Below are positions 1,319 to 17,202 of a DNA stretch of 35,607 bases, one piece after another; positions within the stretch are counted from its first letter, which is position 1; each line of letters opens with the position of its first letter. A program made the translations under genes and the position numbers. The stretch comes from a virus. Below the pieces are notes generated by a model that saw only the letters and a program-made list of their open reading frames with translations, did not search any database and was not told the origin of the DNA. The stretch is from the UHGV virus genome UHGV-0212823, one strand, 5' to 3'.

Positions 1319-1393
<75 letters not shown>

Positions 1394-1394
1394 A

Positions 1395-1471
1395 TGGTCC
1401 GCCACCGAGGGCTCGAACCTCGCACCGTCAACTTAGAAGGTTGATGCTCTATCCCGATGAGCTAGTGGCGG
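1395..1471 (-). tRNA. tRNA-Arg (anticodon UCU), 77 nt
   Basis: Acceptor CCGCCAC/GTGGCGG, anticodon stem TCAAC/GTTGA with loop CTTCTAA, T-loop TTCGAGC, CCA encoded. Confidence 0.8.
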
Positions 1472-1472
1472 C

Positions 1473-1549
1473 TGGTGGCCCTTGCTGGACTTGAACCAGC
1501 GACCGGGCGATTATGAGTCGCACGCTCTGACCAACTGAGCTAAAGGGCC
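1473..1549 (-). tRNA. tRNA with anticodon CAU (Ile2/lysidine-type or Met), 77 nt
   Basis: GGCCCTT acceptor, anticodon loop CTCATAA, T-loop TTCAAGT, CCA encoded; resembles enterobacterial ileX-type tRNA from memory. Confidence 0.8.
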
Positions 1550-5211: not shown

Positions 5212-5604
5212 TCAGAAAGGTACGTCATCCGCAAAGTCTTCACCCAGCACAGGTTGCCCGCCAGTGTTTTTCTTCCGGCCCCCCGGGCGCACGGTTTTCG
5301 CACTAATCACAGAATCAGCCACCACCTGATACCCCGTCTGCAGGACGCCATTATTCCCCTTCCACTGGCTGGCCTGCATAGTGCCAGACACGCTGATCAG
5401 ATCGCCTTTCTGGTGTTTCAGCAGATAGTCCGCTTGTTTTCCGAACGCCGTCACCGCCAGCCAGAATGTCAGTTCGCCACTCTCGGCATCCCGGCAGGGA
5501 AGTGCAACAGCCAGCCGGGTATATGCCATGTTGTTGCCGTTGCTGATGGCCTTGCTCTGCACGTCGACCACCAGTCGGCCATGTGCTGCAATATGAGCTG
5601 TCAT
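5212..5604 (-). CDS. ssb: single-stranded DNA-binding protein (phage-type short SSB)
   Basis: OB-fold-like core and acidic C-terminal tip GEDFADDVPF (compare the DDDIPF tail of bacterial SSB); ATGA overlap with the upstream gene. Confidence 0.75.
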   Translation of the reverse strand: MTAHIAAHGRLVVDVQSKAISNGNNMAYTRLAVALPCRDAESGELTFWLAVTAFGKQADYLLKHQKGDLISVSGTMQASQWKGNNGVLQTGYQVVADSVISAKTVRPGGRKKNTGGQPVLGEDFADDVPF

Positions 5605-7733
5605 TTCGTTATCTCCTCACCTTCGTCAAGCTGAACCAGTAAATAAGAACGCACACGGATGTTGCCCAGGTGCCTGAGTCGCGGCGTCAGCGTCTGGTAA
5701 CCTTTATCGCTCGGCGACTTCTTCAGTATTCCGGCCTCACATAAAGTGCGGGCAAACTGGCCGCTGTCGAATCCCTTCGCCACCTCAGACTTGAATACGC
5801 CGGGCAACACATAGAACAGCAGCGGATCGTCCACGTGATTACCCTTATTCCGGTACCCCGCCAGCTCACTGATTGGCAGGCTTTGCTCGTCATAGGGTAA
5901 AGGGGCGAACCGTCGCATACCGAACGTGCTCAGGAACTGCACCGCCTGCTCTATGATCTGCTCGATTTCTTTGTTGCCGGTACCGAACACACCAATCCAG
6001 GCGTTATAGCTGTGCTGCAGGGCATCACGACAGCTCTGCTCATCCCAGCCGGTAATTACCCTGCCCAGCAACAGGGCAGCTTCCAGAATGGCAAACCGCG
6101 AACCAACACGGTGAACCTGCTCACCATAATCTGCCGGGATAAGATTCCGCCATCGCTCCTCTGCCGAACGTACCGCAGCGACGGCTTCATTGCGATGCTC
6201 AGCAAGCCAGCGGATCCATTCCCGCCCGGCTACGCCATGATTATTCTGATACGCGTCTTTCAGAGCGTCGGCATGCTGCTTGCCGTTTTCGTAATCATGG
6301 AACCGTACCGCCCTGCTCATTGGAATATTCAGTAGGCGTACCAGTTGCCCGGCTTTGGCCTTACGCCCGGCACCGGCTACAAATGTCTCCATATCCACTT
6401 CACCGGTACTGATCGCAACGGTCCGCCAGCGCTTCAGTTCCCGGTTACCACCTTCTTTGGCACCCTGCAGCTTCCCGGTGCCGTTGAACAGTGCGTAGGC
6501 GGACTTCCACACCTCTACGGGGTCAGCACCCTGCCCGATCTCGTCCAGCGGCATCAGCGCATCATTGTGTGCCGCCGCCTCGTTCGCCAGCCCCAGCGCT
6601 GTCCCGTACCAGGTCAGCCGCAACATATCGGGGTTGCCATACAGGCTGGAGGCCACGTTTGCTGTAGTTGTTTTCCCGGCACTTGATTGCTCGTAAAAGT
6701 GAATACCGAAACCATCAGCCCCTGTCAGTCCAATAAGAGGTGCCGCCAGCGCTGCCGCCATAGCGGTCATCATGGAGTAATTGCCACTGGCAAGGCGTGC
6801 CACGCTGTTACGCCAGCTTGCAGTATCTCCCTTCATTGTGTAACCCGCGGCAGCAGAACTACGTCCATTGAAGAGCACCGGGTGTTCAGGTTTTCCGATA
6901 ATTTCACCATCCGGCATAATGTAGGCACCACATTGCCAGCCAGTGGCATGAGCGACGCGCCAGAGTTGTCCGCTGCCGCTTCTCTGCATCCAGTCGGCCA
7001 GGGTTGCCCGCAGGTTACTTTTTGTGGTGACGTTTACCCCTCCGCCCTTCAGTGTGCGCCAGCCCTCCCTCTCGCCAATATCAGCCTGAGGAATGGCTCG
7101 GATAAGCGGCATGTCTTCACCTTCAGGCTGCCAGCGCAGGATCAGATAACGGTCCTTGCCATCAGAACCGATGCTCATAACGTCCAGCGGGGAGCATAGC
7201 CAGCTCTCATTGAGAGTCACTCCACCACTTTCCTTGTCCACTTTTGGTGTTATCCAGTACACCCCGTCGTCACGGCTTTCAATCCGGGGTTTCAGATCAT
7301 CATCGGTCACGGCCTGATGTTTTTTCCCTTTGACAGGCAGAGAGAGCACCACGCTATTTCCCTCCTCAGCATCTGCCTTTAGTGAAGGTAGTCGCGCCGT
7401 CCAGTCCTCCAGCACCTCCTGGCTTTCGGAATAAAAACGGGCCTCCTGCACACCGGCAAGGGCAAGCTTCGTGGCTATAAGGCTGAGGTGCTTTTCGGAT
7501 ATTTCCCCGGCCCGGTAGACCCGGACATAGCGCCGCTCGGCATCAACGATGTTCAGATTGTGCAGTTCATCGAGCTGCTTTTTACCGAGATAAACCGGCG
7601 GGATCGTGTCGCCGATTGTATTGTGGCGCTGCCAGTCCTCAGCGAAGGTCCATGCCTTTTCCCCGGCAAAGATAATTGCCTCGGTAAACGGATCTGGCGG
7701 CAGTTTGTTCAGGTTCGGTGCGTTTTTCATCAT
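5601..7733 (-). CDS. P-loop NTPase, putative replicative primase/helicase (DUF927-like, P4 alpha-like role); start trimmed to MMKNAPN
   Basis: 710 aa; Walker A motif SSAGKTT; same operon as CHC2 zinc-finger protein and SSB; RBS GAGAGG upstream. Confidence 0.6.
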   Translation of the reverse strand: MMKNAPNLNKLPPDPFTEAIIFAGEKAWTFAEDWQRHNTIGDTIPPVYLGKKQLDELHNLNIVDAERRYVRVYRAGEISEKHLSLIATKLALAGVQEARFYSESQEVLEDWTARLPSLKADAEEGNSVVLSLPVKGKKHQAVTDDDLKPRIESRDDGVYWITPKVDKESGGVTLNESWLCSPLDVMSIGSDGKDRYLILRWQPEGEDMPLIRAIPQADIGEREGWRTLKGGGVNVTTKSNLRATLADWMQRSGSGQLWRVAHATGWQCGAYIMPDGEIIGKPEHPVLFNGRSSAAAGYTMKGDTASWRNSVARLASGNYSMMTAMAAALAAPLIGLTGADGFGIHFYEQSSAGKTTTANVASSLYGNPDMLRLTWYGTALGLANEAAAHNDALMPLDEIGQGADPVEVWKSAYALFNGTGKLQGAKEGGNRELKRWRTVAISTGEVDMETFVAGAGRKAKAGQLVRLLNIPMSRAVRFHDYENGKQHADALKDAYQNNHGVAGREWIRWLAEHRNEAVAAVRSAEERWRNLIPADYGEQVHRVGSRFAILEAALLLGRVITGWDEQSCRDALQHSYNAWIGVFGTGNKEIEQIIEQAVQFLSTFGMRRFAPLPYDEQSLPISELAGYRNKGNHVDDPLLFYVLPGVFKSEVAKGFDSGQFARTLCEAGILKKSPSDKGYQTLTPRLRHLGNIRVRSYLLVQLDEGEEITK

Positions 7734-10123: not shown

Positions 10124-10286
10124 TTTCAGCCTCCACAGCTTCACGGGCGATCTTTTCAATCAGCTCGATGAGTTCAAGGCACAACTGCTCTTCGTCCGCA
10201 CTGGAAGTGAGAAACCCAGCCGCGGATGCAAGTGCCTGAATCTTATGCAAAGCATCAAGGCCAACCCCGACTTTAACGTTACGCAT
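10116..10286 (-). CDS. small hypothetical protein, 56 aa (paralog of the 10670-10831 ORF)
   Basis: RBS AGGGGG upstream of ATG at 10286; shares sequence pattern with the other small ORF. Confidence 0.45.
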   Translation of the reverse strand: MRNVKVGVGLDALHKIQALASAAGFLTSSADEEQLCLELIELIEKIAREAVEAENG

Positions 10287-10677
10287 TGCATACCCCCTGT
10301 TCAGGTGTGACAGACCAGCCAGCCCGACGAGCCATTTCGAGGAACGCTGACAACGTTGCAACGTGCTCCCCATTAACCAGTGGGTAATCGCACACATGGC
10401 GGCCTTCTTTGAGCTGAACCAACACGCGCCCTGTGAAATTGGGTGAAACGTGAAGGTTCACAGTTGCCACGGTATTCAGCCCTTTCATCAGCATCAGTTT
10501 CGCAAAATCAGCAGCATCGCCGTGCACGCCACAGCCAAAACAGCGGAAGGTTTGAGCCTTAGAATCAACAGTGAATGATGGCGTTTTCTCGCTGTGAAGA
10601 GGGCAAAGGCCAACATAGTTTTTACCCTGTTTCTCAAGCTGAACGTGCTGATCAATCACTTTCAGAATGTCATTCAT
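10279..10677 (-). CDS. CHC2-type zinc-finger protein (DnaG-primase-like zinc-binding domain), 132 aa
   Basis: Motif CPLHSEKTPSF...FRCFGCGVHGD matches the CHC2 primase zinc finger; RBS AGGAGG 7 nt upstream. Confidence 0.7.
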   Translation of the reverse strand: MNDILKVIDQHVQLEKQGKNYVGLCPLHSEKTPSFTVDSKAQTFRCFGCGVHGDAADFAKLMLMKGLNTVATVNLHVSPNFTGRVLVQLKEGRHVCDYPLVNGEHVATLSAFLEMARRAGWSVTPEQGVCNA

Positions 10678-10831
10678 TCCCGGCCTCCTGCGCTTTTTTA
10701 GCGACCTCTTCAATCTGCGACATAAGGATCCCTGCCAGTTCAATGCGGGCAGGTGTATCTGTCAGAAACTGTGCTGCACGTGCGAATGCCTCAATTTCGA
10801 TAAGGGCATCGGTTTTGGTGAATTCAGACAT
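10670..10831 (-). CDS. small hypothetical protein, 53 aa (paralog of the 10116-10286 ORF)
   Basis: RBS AGGAGG 6 nt upstream of ATG at 10831. Confidence 0.45.
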   Translation of the reverse strand: MSEFTKTDALIEIEAFARAAQFLTDTPARIELAGILMSQIEEVAKKAQEAGNE

Positions 10832-12595: not shown

Positions 12596-13567
12596 TTAAT
12601 TGAATTTTTCTTTAAATTTTTTGTTGGCTACTGCAAAGTAATCATCAAGGGCACGGCGGGTAAAATTAGGACACATTTCAACCAACTCTTCTTTCAATAG
12701 ATCCTGAGTCCAGCGTCTTTGCCTGCTGTTTGTATTTTTTATAACACTTAACATTGAGCCAACCAAAAAACTGAAATCCATTTCCTCAACTTCTGGCGTT
12801 CCAGTGATCGTTCTTTCAAATGCTATTAAATTATCAGGGCGTAAACCAATTTCACTATTAACTGGAAGCCCATCAGTGGGGAAATAGTTCATTGCATCCA
12901 ATTCTAACAAACGTATATTTCCATCTTTATCCTTTGTGATTTTACCTCGTTCAAATTCTTCCATAATATTAATTAATCGCCCGTTAGTATCTTTTATTAA
13001 TGGTCCACCCAGATTTATTAACCTATTCGATTCATAACCTTTCCCAGTTGAGTATATCCTTTGAAGATCCAGAACCTCAGCGCCAATCAATGGTAGATCA
13101 TAAATCACTTCATTTAGATATTCAGGGCCAGACACATATTCATAATCACCAAACCGACCTTTCTCAAGATAGGATTCCAACGTCATATCTTCATACTTAG
13201 AGCCATACCTAGCCGACATTTTCTCTTTCGAACTTTCGAACTCCTCCAGCAAATACTGTTTAAATTCTTCTTTATATGCTGAAAGTAAATCTCCTTCGCT
13301 CGCATTTTTCAGATTAGGATCACACATCAGCCTGAAAAGAAACATTTCTTGCAAGTGGTTAATAATTGGTACTTCTTTGTAAATCATCTCCCGACCAACA
13401 AATTTTTCTCCATATGGCAATCGAACAGACAAAATCAGATCGTGAGACAAGCCAAGCTCTATCAAATCCAAAACAGTAACGTTTCCTTCAACTATTGAGG
13501 AAAGCCGTTCCGCAGCTTCATCAAGCCCTATCCATTTCTTTATTTTTAGTAGACGATCACTAACCAT
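12596..13567 (-). CDS. hypothetical protein, 323 aa, AT-rich cargo gene
   Basis: Clean ORF with RBS GAGGTGG; far more AT-rich than neighbours; no motif recognised. Confidence 0.6.
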   Translation of the reverse strand: MVSDRLLKIKKWIGLDEAAERLSSIVEGNVTVLDLIELGLSHDLILSVRLPYGEKFVGREMIYKEVPIINHLQEMFLFRLMCDPNLKNASEGDLLSAYKEEFKQYLLEEFESSKEKMSARYGSKYEDMTLESYLEKGRFGDYEYVSGPEYLNEVIYDLPLIGAEVLDLQRIYSTGKGYESNRLINLGGPLIKDTNGRLINIMEEFERGKITKDKDGNIRLLELDAMNYFPTDGLPVNSEIGLRPDNLIAFERTITGTPEVEEMDFSFLVGSMLSVIKNTNSRQRRWTQDLLKEELVEMCPNFTRRALDDYFAVANKKFKEKFN

Positions 13568-13755: not shown

Positions 13756-13962
13756 TCAGGTTTTCAGGTCATGACGCGATTCGGCAATACGATTATTTAT
13801 CCACTCGTCGATCTCACTTTCGATAAATGCTATAGAACGCACACCAATCTTCACGGACTGCGGGAAGCGCTTTTCTTTAAGCAGCCGATAAATCCAAGCC
13901 TTGCTATACCCTGTTCTACGAAGTACCTCGGAAAGGCGTATAAATCTACTATTCTGAGCCAT
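13756..13962 (-). CDS. alpA: AlpA-family transcriptional regulator/excisionase-like protein (second copy); start trimmed to MAQNSRF
   Basis: RLSEVLRRTGYSKAWIYRLLKEKRFPQSVKIGVRSIAFIESEIDEWI, paralogous to the 12291-12488 protein. Confidence 0.75.
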   Translation of the reverse strand: MAQNSRFIRLSEVLRRTGYSKAWIYRLLKEKRFPQSVKIGVRSIAFIESEIDEWINNRIAESRHDLKT

Positions 13963-14607
13963 ATGATGTTTCCTGTGTTGCGGACATAACAAAAGAACCT
14001 GGCACTGAGTGACAGGTTTAATATTAATGATTCAAGATTAAGGATGTGGTTTAACCCACAGCATGCAAGCATGTGCGGTTAATAAATTCTTCAGCAAGAT
14101 AGATGCAGCTAAGGGGCTACAGAGTGGCGACTGAATTTCAACAAGGGACGAAACATACCTAGTAAGTGAATTTCTGAAATACACTCATAATACATTTGCT
14201 CATCCCGCATCGGGCTGAGAATCCAGATTTTAAAGAACTATTATACAATTGCATTTATCCTCCAGAACTTCTGGAAGACTGCTACACAAGGGCGTAGCGC
14301 GACTTACACTTAGGCAAGCCTCCCCATTAATTTTAAAGAACATCGCACTTTTCAGTGCTCGATTGATTCACTTTTCAGCGACGGAGAACAAGTGTTCGTT
14401 GTGAAAAGAACTGATCCGATTTCCAACCCTTCTTCAGGGCATGTCCGATGTCTTCACCGAGTAAATCATTTTAAAGAACTAGCACTTCAACAGTGCCGCT
14501 GCTTGTCTAAAGAACAATGGTCGTCAACTGAAATGAAAGATAGATCACTACTGTCTACATGTCCAGCGTTTTTCACATCATAAAAATGAACACGGCCTCA
14601 CTAAATA

Positions 14608-14730
14608 GTCGTTCCAAAACCGCCAAAAGTTGTTCCAGAGTTGTTCCAACTTGAATGTGTGCATATAAATAAAGACAATAACTTATCCTTATAAATATAC
14701 ATATGGAACAACTGGAACAAGTGGAACGAC
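14608..14730. repeat. nonamer array module A: three direct GTYGTTCCA copies and three inverted copies around an AT-rich spacer
   Basis: GTCGTTCCA 14608-14616, GTTGTTCCA 14629-14637 and 14640-14648; inverted TGGAACAAC/TGGAACAAG/TGGAACGAC tandem at 14704-14730. Confidence 0.6.
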
Positions 14731-14759
14731 TATTTTTCTCTTACATGTGAATAAACAGC

Positions 14760-15947
14760 TTATCCAGCAGCCTTACCCGCCAGTTCATCCAGATAGTCAG
14801 CGTACCACTGGAGCATCTCCCGTCTCCCATCGAGGTACTGAGCATGGTTGTAAGTACCACGGATAGTATTCCTGTCAGCGTGCGCCAGTTGAGTTTCTAT
14901 CCATGCAGAATCAAATCCTTTCTCATGCAATACGGTGCTCATCGTGTGTCTGAAACCATGGCCAGTAGCCTTTCCGCCATAGCCTATACGTTTAATCACC
15001 TGGTTAATGCTGGCCTCGCTCATTGGTTTATGTGCATCGTTGCGACCGGGGAAGACATACTTACCCCAGCCGGTGATCTCTTTTAGCTCCAGCAGATGAG
15101 ATTTAACCTGTCTAGAAAGTGGTACAAGGTGAGGACGGCGCATCTTCATGCGTTCCTTAGGGATCTGCCACAAATCATTGTCCAGGTCGAATTCAGCCCA
15201 CTCTGAGGCGCGGAGTTCAATGGTCCTGACACTGGTGTACATAAGCAGTAATGTCGCAATGCGTGTCACTTTACTACCACTATAAGCATTCACTGCGTGA
15301 ATAAATGGACCAAGTTCGGCGGGGAGTAGGTGTGGGAAGTGATTTTGCTTGGGTGATTTTAGTGCGCCAGCCAGATCGGTTACGGGGTTTACCTCTGCTC
15401 TGCCAGTAATTATCGCGTAAGTGAAAATCTGCCGACATGCCTGACGGGTTTTCTTGAGCTTATCCAGTACTCCTCGTTCTTCCATTTTGCGCAACACTGA
15501 CAGCATGTCCATCGGCTTGATTTCGGTAATGGCCTTCTTTCCGACATACGGGAATATATCCTTTCGTAGATATTCAAGAATGTCCTCAGCATACCCGGAA
15601 GACCAGTTCAACTTCTTATGCTCATGCCATTCAAGCGCCAAAAGCTCGAAGCTGTTATTAATTGCTAGATTCTTCGCTTCTCTGGCGGCTTGTTTAACTT
15701 CAGAGGGATCGTCACCTGCTGCAAGTACACGCTTGGCTTCCGTACGTTTGTCTCTGGCTTCAGCAAGCGTCACATCAGGATAAACGCCAATGGAAAGCAG
15801 CTTTTCTTTGCCTGAATAGCGGTACTTCATGCGCCAGTACCTGGAACCATTCGGGTTAACCAGCAGATACAAACCACCACCATCAGACAGCTTATATGGT
15901 TTATCTGTTGGCTTTGCAGTACTTATCTGGCGGGCTGTTAGCTTCAT
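14760..15947 (-). CDS. int: tyrosine site-specific integrase, P4/CP4-57 type
   Basis: 395 aa; N-terminal arm-binding-type domain (LSDGGGLYLLVNPNGSRYWRMKYRY) and C-terminal catalytic region with HGFRHT and Tyr-containing RGTYNHAQY motifs. Confidence 0.9.
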   Translation of the reverse strand: MKLTARQISTAKPTDKPYKLSDGGGLYLLVNPNGSRYWRMKYRYSGKEKLLSIGVYPDVTLAEARDKRTEAKRVLAAGDDPSEVKQAAREAKNLAINNSFELLALEWHEHKKLNWSSGYAEDILEYLRKDIFPYVGKKAITEIKPMDMLSVLRKMEERGVLDKLKKTRQACRQIFTYAIITGRAEVNPVTDLAGALKSPKQNHFPHLLPAELGPFIHAVNAYSGSKVTRIATLLLMYTSVRTIELRASEWAEFDLDNDLWQIPKERMKMRRPHLVPLSRQVKSHLLELKEITGWGKYVFPGRNDAHKPMSEASINQVIKRIGYGGKATGHGFRHTMSTVLHEKGFDSAWIETQLAHADRNTIRGTYNHAQYLDGRREMLQWYADYLDELAGKAAG

Positions 15948-16365
15948 ATTGGGGGTATCTCACTTCATTGAACCTGAACATACCCCCGAATGTACCCCCA
16001 GATGAGCGTAGATTTCAATAGATGATAATAGACATTGGGATAATGAGATTCTGCTCTATGCCTTGTTATATCTGGATTTAGTAGACTTTGAGAGAGGTCA
16101 GTAGAAGTGAATATGGTACGCCCTGTAGGATTCAATATAAATAAATAATCAATTGATATAAATGAATATTATTTTGTTCAATTTAATCACATACCCCCAC
16201 ACATACCCCCAAATTTATTTGCATCAATACTGAGCAAAAAACTTACCCGGTTTGGCAGAGTTCCAAGCCTATAGTAAAACAATAATGCAACAAATCCCTG
16301 ACTGAATTTCAGCAGCCATCTCTGGGTATCCATTTTTTAAATACGCGTATATATATACAGAAAAC

Positions 16366-16482
16366 GTTGTTCCAGTCGTTCCAGTTGTTCCAAAACATGT
16401 AATCAATTGAATTTTAAATAAATCATAATCGAAAAGTGGAACAATTCGGTGTCAAAAAAGTTGTTCCAGATGGCGGTTTTGG
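16366..16482. repeat. nonamer array module B: same GTYGTTCCA family, inverted relative to module A
   Basis: GTTGTTCCA/GTCGTTCCA/GTTGTTCCA at 16366-16393, TGGAACAA at 16437-16444, GTTGTTCCA 16460-16468, TGGCGGTTTTGG 16471-16482 (reverse complement of 14614-14625). Confidence 0.6.
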
Positions 16483-16959
16483 TACAACTGGAGTGGGTAA
16501 TTTGGAGTAGCAGTGACAAAATGGCGCAAATTTCAGCCAATGCACACAGGGTGTTCATGAAGATTAAGTGAAAGTAAAACAGATAGGGAATTTGAGATTT
16601 GGCGAAAGGAGTGTTGATCATTTGTGAGCAAACTGCATTCGGATTACTGGGCTTGCAGTTGCCAGAAAAACTACGAGCCGGCGAAATTCATACCGACATC
16701 GCAACCCATTGATGCAGCTTAATTATAGCGAATCGCGAGAATTGGCTAACCCATTGAAATTGTTCCAGAGTGTAAATTTACACTCTGCTCATAATACGTG
16801 CAACCCACTGAATTACCTTGATTATAACGAATCGTTAGGATTGCCTAACTGGCTGATTTTGTTCAATTCCGTCGATTCAACGGAGTTAGTTGATCACGAA
16901 TAGTATTCGGGGTCGCCTGAACATTAACACTACTTAGGTTCTAAAGAGGAGTTAAAACA

Positions 16960-17202
16960 ATGTTCGTGGAACTCGTTTATGACAAAAGGAATTTTGATGG
17001 TCTGCCCGGTGCAAAAGATATCATTCTGGGCGAATTGACCAGGAGGGTTCACCGGATTTTCCCCGACGCTGATGTCCGGGTTAAACCGATGATGACATTG
17101 CCGGCGATCAACACTGACGCCAGCAAGCACGAGAAGGAACAGATAAGCCGTACTGTTCAGGAAATGTTTGAAGAGGCTGATATGTGGCTGGTTTCAGATT
17201 AA
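16960..17202 (+). CDS. dinI: DinI-family protein
   Basis: 80 aa; pattern ELTRRVHRIFPDADVRVKP...EKEQISRTVQEMFEEADMWLVSD resembles DinI; strong RBS AAGAGGAG. Confidence 0.75.
   Translation: MFVELVYDKRNFDGLPGAKDIILGELTRRVHRIFPDADVRVKPMMTLPAINTDASKHEKEQISRTVQEMFEEADMWLVSD

Follow-up and report, generated by a model that had tools for sequence, protein, structure and literature searches.

The Rep proteins of Staphylococcus aureus pathogenicity islands (SaPIs) are self-loading initiator helicases in which a C-terminal winged-helix domain binds iterons, and the 6–12 iterons of these islands lie just 3′ of rep in opposite orientation with an AT-rich centre between them (PMC9371898, PMC7581432). The origins of the phage-inducible chromosomal islands (PICIs) of Gram-negative bacteria are organised likewise, and the pri-rep-ori region of EcCICFT073 was reported to function in a plasmid maintenance test (PMC6092414). 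The virus genome UHGV-0212823, a stretch of 35,607 bases that is referred to here at its full length as the window, carries two arrays of a GTYGTTCCA nonamer on either side of its integrase gene, module A (14608–14730) and module B (16366–16488), and encodes a 710-aa DUF927 protein (rep; 5601–7733, minus strand) predicted to be a helicase-initiator. The comparisons described below indicated that modules A and B are very probably each one half of an iteron origin of the SaPI/PICI type, on which the DUF927 Rep of the element itself would act. This kind of origin is already known, and what is new is its split placement flanking the attachment site in a full-size phage.

The nonamer was counted across the window, and all nine exact copies of GTYGTTCCA were found inside 14608–14730 or 16366–16468, whereas dinucleotide-preserving shuffles of the window had 0.62 on average and 3 at most. 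The clustering around the integrase gene that had been proposed in an earlier reading of the letters alone (the sequence-only reading) was thus confirmed. When one mismatch was allowed, CTTGTTCCA at 14713–14721, ATTGTTCCA at 16437–16445 and GTTGTACCA at 16480–16488, all on the minus strand, were added, which gave six nonamers in both orientations to each module of about 120 bp, as that reading had described; neither the exact nor the one-mismatch counts revealed a further iteron cluster elsewhere in the window. Module A contains GTCGTTCCA, 12 nt, GTTGTTCCA, 2 nt and again GTTGTTCCA (14608–14616, 14629–14637 and 14640–14648, all plus strand), followed by an AT-rich centre of 55 bp (14649–14703; 78% AT) and three contiguous inverted copies (14704–14712, 14713–14721 and 14722–14730, all minus strand). 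Module B starts with three contiguous direct copies (16366–16374, 16375–16383 and 16384–16392, plus strand), which are followed by an AT-rich centre of 44 bp (16393–16436; 82% AT), an inverted copy (16437–16445), a direct copy (16460–16468) and the degenerate inverted GTTGTACCA (16480–16488). Both modules therefore have the oppositely oriented iteron sets (3 + 3) around an AT-rich region that are typical of SaPI/PICI origins. The two also share, in opposite orientation and as had been noticed earlier, the element CCAAAACCGCCA (14614–14625 and 16471–16482), which is the counterpart of a conserved 12-nt gap separating two outer iterons in the relatives. The further copy claimed at 16760–16768 turned out to be a lone one-mismatch ATTGTTCCA at 16759–16767, and because chance alone would give the window about nine matches of this quality, it was left out of any array.

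The origin that lies 3′ of rep in six canonical PICIs has the form of a mirrored double module. Its first half (array 1) comprises CACATGTGAG, contiguous iterons, an AT-rich centre and spaced inverted iterons, and its second half (array 2) comprises spaced iterons, a second AT-rich centre, contiguous inverted iterons and GTATATATAC. When read in the direction of rep, module A has the array 1 pattern together with a CACATGTAAG flank (14740–14749, minus strand), the canonical counterpart of which, CACATGTGAG, sits between the rep stop codon and array 1. Read in the same direction, module B has the array 2 pattern with the flank GTATATATATAC (16347–16358), which is the conserved distal flank of array 2 in the canonical elements. 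The flank motifs CACATGTGAG of array 1 and GTATATATAC of array 2 are hence common to the canonical origins and to modules A and B, respectively. In the circular genome of the window the two modules are 1.6 kb apart with int and the phage attachment site (attP) between them; array 1 lies 29 bp past the int stop codon and array 2 lies 155 bp past the outer arm repeat of attP.

In most relatives, which are Gram-negative PICI satellites, the array lies directly 3′ of rep. The layout could be seen in about eighteen relatives, and these had either the mirrored double module or another array close by or adjoining attR. The second array has shifted in other lineages too, and it was located about 150–190 bp from the attR arm repeats in three islands (L077, L105 and L114), all with different iterons and, in L114, with a different integrase as well. 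In L091 (11757–20319), which is a PICI-like element, the interval between the two iteron arrays is filled by head and ejection genes of the P22 type together with a SieA-like gene and a gene for abortive infection, and this cargo appears to have been inserted between the origin halves. Because inserted genes often lie between the arrays, the middle of the origin is suggested to be a preferred site of gene capture. One prophage contig carries module A beside int (L054) and module B at a separate locus (L016), a layout that would fit with integration parting the two modules. As side observations, the L052-type relatives adjoin a yhdJ-like methylase gene, which is the fis/yhdJ PICI site. A motif TTATTGTTTTTAT / TGTTTTATAAG recurred in the AT-rich centres of elements with different iterons (14660–14700 in the window, 11790–11830 in L091 and 3′ of rep in L185–L190), and the 12-nt gap adjoining the outermost iteron had a run of T at its end in every case; these may be host-factor or primase sites.

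The initiator proteins were then compared. DUF927 (E = 1.5e-50) was the sole Pfam domain in the window Rep, which bears only the name 'DUF927 domain-containing' at NCBI. A sequence search of the PDB returned 8tch (SaPIbov1 Rep; E = 8.5e-11) and also 5dgk, the Cch protein of the staphylococcal cassette chromosome mec (SCCmec), and a Foldseek search with the AlphaFold model had 5dgk and 8tch as its top matches (E about 1e-12). The initiator thus belongs to the helicase family of SaPIbov1 Rep and Cch, and as these two are its nearest solved relatives, the closest described system is the Rep-ori of SaPIs and PICIs. Like that replicon, as described for SaPIbov1 Rep and for the pri-rep-ori of EcCICFT073 (PMC9371898, PMC6092414), the window has an initiator from the DUF927 family of self-loading helicases, short iterons in two opposed sets with an AT-rich centre and a specificity that maps, by co-variation, to the Rep C-terminus. 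The match extends to contiguous iterons, an AT-rich centre of ~45–55 bp and inverted iterons at one- and two-turn spacing. The window differs in that its origin halves are parted by int and attP and lie about 7–8.6 kb from rep, that its iterons are 9-mers at a contiguous spacing of 9 bp and not penta- or hexamers, that the zinc-ribbon of the primase is a separate gene, and that a full virion and lysis set is present. The Cch/Cch2 system of SCCmec, which includes the best structural match (5dgk), likewise couples an initiator helicase to nearby iterons (PMC7581432), but its host and element type are different, and its putative origin consists of three 5-nt direct repeats with no mirrored double module.

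The association of array and Rep was followed in 80 viral-contig loci encoding homologues of the DUF927 protein. The GTTGTTCCA array was present in all 11 loci with Rep at least 75% identical, together with integrases 82–94% identical to that of the window and also, at four loci, with integrases merely 25–27% identical; in L057 it lies 3 kb from int. Reps with 91–99% identity to that of the window occur in Enterobacter or Klebsiella aerogenes strains. The iterons of module A and their spacing were invariant in 10 related elements, with no indels in the array, and the centre remained AT-rich with a varying sequence. The module B block was kept in L009, L016 and L017 while its flanks diverged, and L164 (Yokenella) showed ~70% identity to the module B region. 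The GTYGTTCCA-type array was absent from the 69 loci with Rep 58–73% identical, and these loci had the same architecture made of other 9-mers, namely GTTGGTTCA in 67, GTTGTCTC in L101 and GGTGGTTCA in L106. The array started roughly 30–100 bp past the rep stop codon in 67 of these 69. Furthermore, rep was the only early gene conserved at a consistently high level among the array-bearing relatives, with ssb the nearest to it (64–90%), and the genes labelled zn154, o273, o101 and o126 were each missing from L050 or L057.

The change of iteron was accompanied by a change at the end of Rep. The identity between Reps of type A (the window type) and type B was 0.8–0.9 over the helicase core and 0.18–0.46 in the last ~80 residues, and divergence between iteron types in general was concentrated in the last ~120 residues, which are proposed from these alignments as the iteron-binding domain. 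The Rep of L101 differs from its nearest relatives chiefly in the C-terminal region, and the L101 and L106 Reps are 94% identical overall and have different iterons. A short motif in the Rep C-terminus matched the iteron type in 81/81 proteins. For a test by prediction, 120 database homologues were sorted by this motif and six elements with unexamined motifs were fetched. An A-like C-terminus from Serratia came with the iteron GTGGTTCCA, a B-like one with GTTGGTTCA and one close to the GGTGGTTCA type with its close variant CGTGGTTCA, whereas three novel C-termini came with TTAGCCCA, GTTGCCTCA and AGTGGGTTA. The iteron was therefore the same, similar or new as predicted in each of the six, and the array was directly 3′ of rep in all of them. 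This co-variation argues that iteron specificity is set by the C-terminal domain of Rep.

Megablast of 14300–17000 found no match in the phage collection and only dinI in complete E. coli genomes, and a search in distant mode yielded nothing beyond pieces of int, through which the annotated record of P4 was reached. A tblastn search of Rep in sequenced phages gave just seven records, one of them covering most of the protein, so that sequenced phages provided no whole-genome views. Scans for triple nonamers in viral and genome contigs gave about six viral and four genomic matches of relevance; many of the other matches were long runs in one orientation from unrelated taxa, including giant-virus contigs, and were taken to be coding repeats. 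The replication modules of Eru-type Stx phages were looked at and set aside as not relevant, their proteins being different.

Several observations weigh against the assignment of modules A and B to a Rep-dependent origin. The support for it is wholly comparative, and the split between types A and B is essentially one phylogenetic event, so that independent support comes from a handful of other specificity switches. The arrays are not immediately 3′ of rep in the window, where they lie 6.9 and 8.6 kb away from it. As the ssb start (ssb; 5212–5604, minus strand) overlaps the rep stop codon, this lineage has no origin in an intergenic space 3′ of rep. The outer side of module B is irregular and its middle iteron is flipped, and for this reason module B may be an incomplete origin. 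Moreover, type-A arrays are accompanied by other early genes as well in most, albeit not all, relatives. In addition, the AlphaFold model of Rep is of moderate quality (mean pLDDT 66) with a poorly modelled ATPase core.

The nonamers had alternatively been read as integrase arm sites of an intact attP, and the attachment site was mapped between the modules. The integrase gene (int; 14760–15947, minus strand) encodes a P4-type tyrosine integrase with Arm-DNA-bind_3, Phage_int_M and Phage_integrase domains. Next to it, attP (15950–16210) is composed of RTACCCCC arm repeats at 15950–15958 (inverted and abutting the int start), 15978–15987, 15990–15999, 16189–16198 and 16201–16210, and of a 20-nt core at 16114–16133 that reads GAATCCTACAGGGCGTACCA on the minus strand and equals the 3′ end of the host tRNA-Arg(TCT) gene. 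In the related prophage L058, tRNA-Arg(TCT) lies upstream of an int 93% identical to that of the window, and identity with the window begins exactly at the core; in L136, a metagenome-assembled genome of Enterobacter, the likeness to the window ends at 16133. The annotated attP of P4 has the same layout of ATGCCCCC-type repeats, one inverted at the int start, two adjoining, the core and two more, and RTACCCCC recurs at attL and attR of related islands. The RTACCCCC repeats are thus the arm-type sites and attP is intact, and the nonamers have another role. The corollary of the earlier proposal, that the genome is excised or permuted around an intact attP, was borne out. A side observation was made in the metagenomic contig L009 (2520–2780), where, from a reading of its sequence, the core, the P′ arm and module B are preceded by the apparent 3′ end of a different integrase gene, which would suggest tandem elements or a hybrid attachment region.

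It is accordingly highly improbable that the nonamers are arm-type sites of the P4-type integrase in a very large attP spanning int. The nonamers do lie on either side of int and attP, an arm-binding domain is present in the integrase, and module A of the L052-type relatives is situated between the arm repeats of the integrase and its start codon. However, module A is ~1.4 kb from the core, the same array accompanies integrases 25–27% identical and is remote from int in L057, and arrays of the same design are 3′ of rep in 67 of the other 69 relatives. This reading was rejected because the arrays outlast the change of integrase and adjoin rep in most relatives, and because RTACCCCC fills the positions of the P4 arm repeats. 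The arrays could otherwise be operators at which a regulator such as AlpA, a protein of the Bro/antirepressor type or a repressor controls the early operon and int, as module A is upstream of the alpA-led early genes and most relatives with type-A arrays also have several of the early regulators, but we find this very unlikely. AlpA homologues were undetectable in the four array-bearing loci with integrases 25–27% identical, where the AlpA-like ORF is highly divergent, and AlpA was for that reason ruled out as the array binder. The other early genes lack the consistently high conservation of rep, and in other lineages the arrays adjoin the stop codon of rep, where they vary together with the C-terminus of Rep rather than with regulators. 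A further reading, that one or both modules are non-functional relics of recombination at an ancestral origin and that the working origin is elsewhere, is given an equally small chance. It would agree with the position of the arrays outside the canonical place, with the irregular module B and with a mosaic history that is evident from different integrases on the same backbone. Against it, the window has no other iteron cluster, module A is invariant in ten elements, and module B is kept in three independent elements (L009, L016 and L017), and more weakly in L164, with diverging flanks.

The sequence-only reading had offered a replication origin of the P4 type. In P4, alpha binds the iterons and these are required in cis (background that draws in part on the GenBank annotation), and ori cooperates with the cis-replication region (crr); our literature search found no mechanistic paper on P4 crr. 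What stood of that proposal is that the arrays behave as iterons of a cognate primase/helicase, in two separated clusters with one beside attP; the identity with alpha did not. P4 and the window both have two separate clusters with iterons in both orientations and partly at 9-bp spacing, and in each of them one cluster is found just past the outermost arm sites of attP, which itself precedes an int of the P4 type, with arm repeats and layout alike (RTACCCCC and ATGCCCCC). The offsets are nearly equal, 155 bp in the window against 116 bp to crr and 139 bp to the first crr iteron in P4, and TGTTC occurs within both iterons. The P4 iteron given in the sequence-only reading, TGTTCACC, was correct when checked against P4 sequences, which show TGTTCACC/GGTGAACA, but this type I iteron is not the GTYGTTCCA or GTTGTTCCA of the window. 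The primase/helicase set had been called alpha-like, yet BLASTP gave no similarity between the 710-aa protein and P4 alpha (nothing better than E = 0.36), and this protein has DUF927 where alpha has D5_N/DUF5906/Pox_D5 behind Zn_Ribbon_Prim and Toprim_3. That primase part is shared with alpha only by fused relatives of roughly 820–950 aa, in which Zn_Ribbon_Prim and Toprim_3 are joined to the DUF927 helicase. Furthermore, crr of P4 is also 3′ of alpha and ori is ~4.7 kb away upstream of the operon, whereas the arrays of the window are not 3′ of rep. With SaPIbov1 Rep and Cch as the closest structures, a genuine ori/crr pair of the P4 family, to which a primase-helicase of the alpha family binds, is the least probable of these explanations, and its chance is close to nil. 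The P4 pair is nevertheless a good functional analogy, although the helicase of the window is not of the alpha family.

The SaPI/PICI-type origin being the preferred reading, a scheme for its use was drawn from homology and co-variation. Most likely, Rep would dock on the iterons through its C-terminal domain, melt the AT-rich centre without ATP in a self-loading manner and load as two hexamers. The primase-helicase is split in the window between Rep and a separately encoded CHC2 (DnaG-type) zinc-ribbon protein (10279–10743, minus strand; 154 aa), the presumed primase component, and priming would come from this protein together with the N-terminal domain of Rep, while the adjacent ssb product would coat the opened strands. 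It was also observed that the window Rep is without the Zn_Ribbon_Prim and Toprim_3 N-terminus and has a confidently modelled N-terminal domain of ~125 aa instead. Integration at the tRNA-Arg core would send the two halves to opposite ends of the prophage. Each half might fire alone, or one might be a crr-like enhancer or pairing partner of the other. We regard it as possible, though rather unlikely, that the canonical mirrored double origin has been split with attP and int between its halves in such a manner that array 1 is at the left and array 2 at the right prophage end, more than 33 kb apart, and only excision restores the 1.6-kb distance.

If the halves cooperate, efficient replication would depend on excision, and if the halves fire independently, both ends of the prophage would carry an origin and flanking host DNA could be amplified in situ. 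The comparison putatively assigns an origin and an initiator to widespread, uncharacterised Enterobacterales prophages and PICI-like elements, and the at least nine pairs of Rep C-terminus and iteron could guide specificity swaps, predictions of incompatibility and typing of satellites. A bipartite origin with halves separable by kilobases or by attP would also tie the PICI origin to the ori/crr of P4, known for long and still poorly understood, and the role of the second cluster becomes testable. A complete phage with a PICI-type early region bears, in addition, on the exchange of modules between satellites and phages.

Nearly all genes of the window are on the minus strand, and the late genes run from terminase, which is truncated where the window ends, through portal, protease, capsid, tape measure and J to the tail fibre. 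They are followed by dinI (plus strand), module B, attP, int and module A, and past module A by the early genes alpA, an orphan of 323 aa, a second alpA, a gene of the Bro family, several regulators and the CHC2 zinc-ribbon protein. Next are the 710-aa DUF927 protein and ssb, the start of which coincides with the rep stop codon, and after them a Q-like antiterminator, three tRNAs and the lysis genes for holin and endolysin. The window is a complete temperate siphovirus in an excised or permuted form. The order of its early region, Integration/Bro/Replication, is that of Gram-negative PICIs, and with these it shares an inward-facing int, AlpA, Bro, replication and late genes on one strand (PMC10111431). 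The size of 10–20 kb and the tail-less content of those islands are not matched, as the window encodes terminase, portal, capsid, tape measure, J, fibre, holin and endolysin. Because a full virion and lysis gene set is encoded, the element is a phage and not a 10–20 kb satellite, and its likeness is to the 'elongated PICIs' or to a phage whose early region is of the PICI type (PMC10111431).

Some minor features were noted in the window. Rfam at the gathering threshold found only three tRNAs in the whole window, and no match in 13900–17000 with E up to 1, so that no P4-like CI/C4/isrK immunity RNA was matched near the modules. A promoter and terminator scan of 13900–17050 gave promoter-like sites at a frequency no higher than in shuffles. 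The tRNA cluster (1319–1549, minus strand) comprises Gly(TCC), Arg(TCT) and Met(CAT), of which the tRNA-Arg(TCT) shares its isoacceptor type with the target of integration but has a sequence quite unlike the host gene. The 323-aa ORF (12596–13567, minus strand) between the two alpA paralogues is in a stretch of low GC (35–38%) and had no Pfam or PHROG match and only two weak (31%) matches in the 80 related loci; an accessory or a defence gene is a possible identity for it. Three copies of GTTCTTTAAAAT (minus-strand reading), two with a short GC hairpin ahead, lie at 14226–14500 in the 600-bp non-coding stretch from module A to alpA; they had no Rfam match and might be regulator sites or terminators. 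Upstream of dinI, a 65-nt direct repeat (16701–16765 and 16800–16864; 74% identical) is accompanied by a perfect 11-bp hairpin at 16766–16787, and the region 16701–16864 is partly conserved in L009 and L017.

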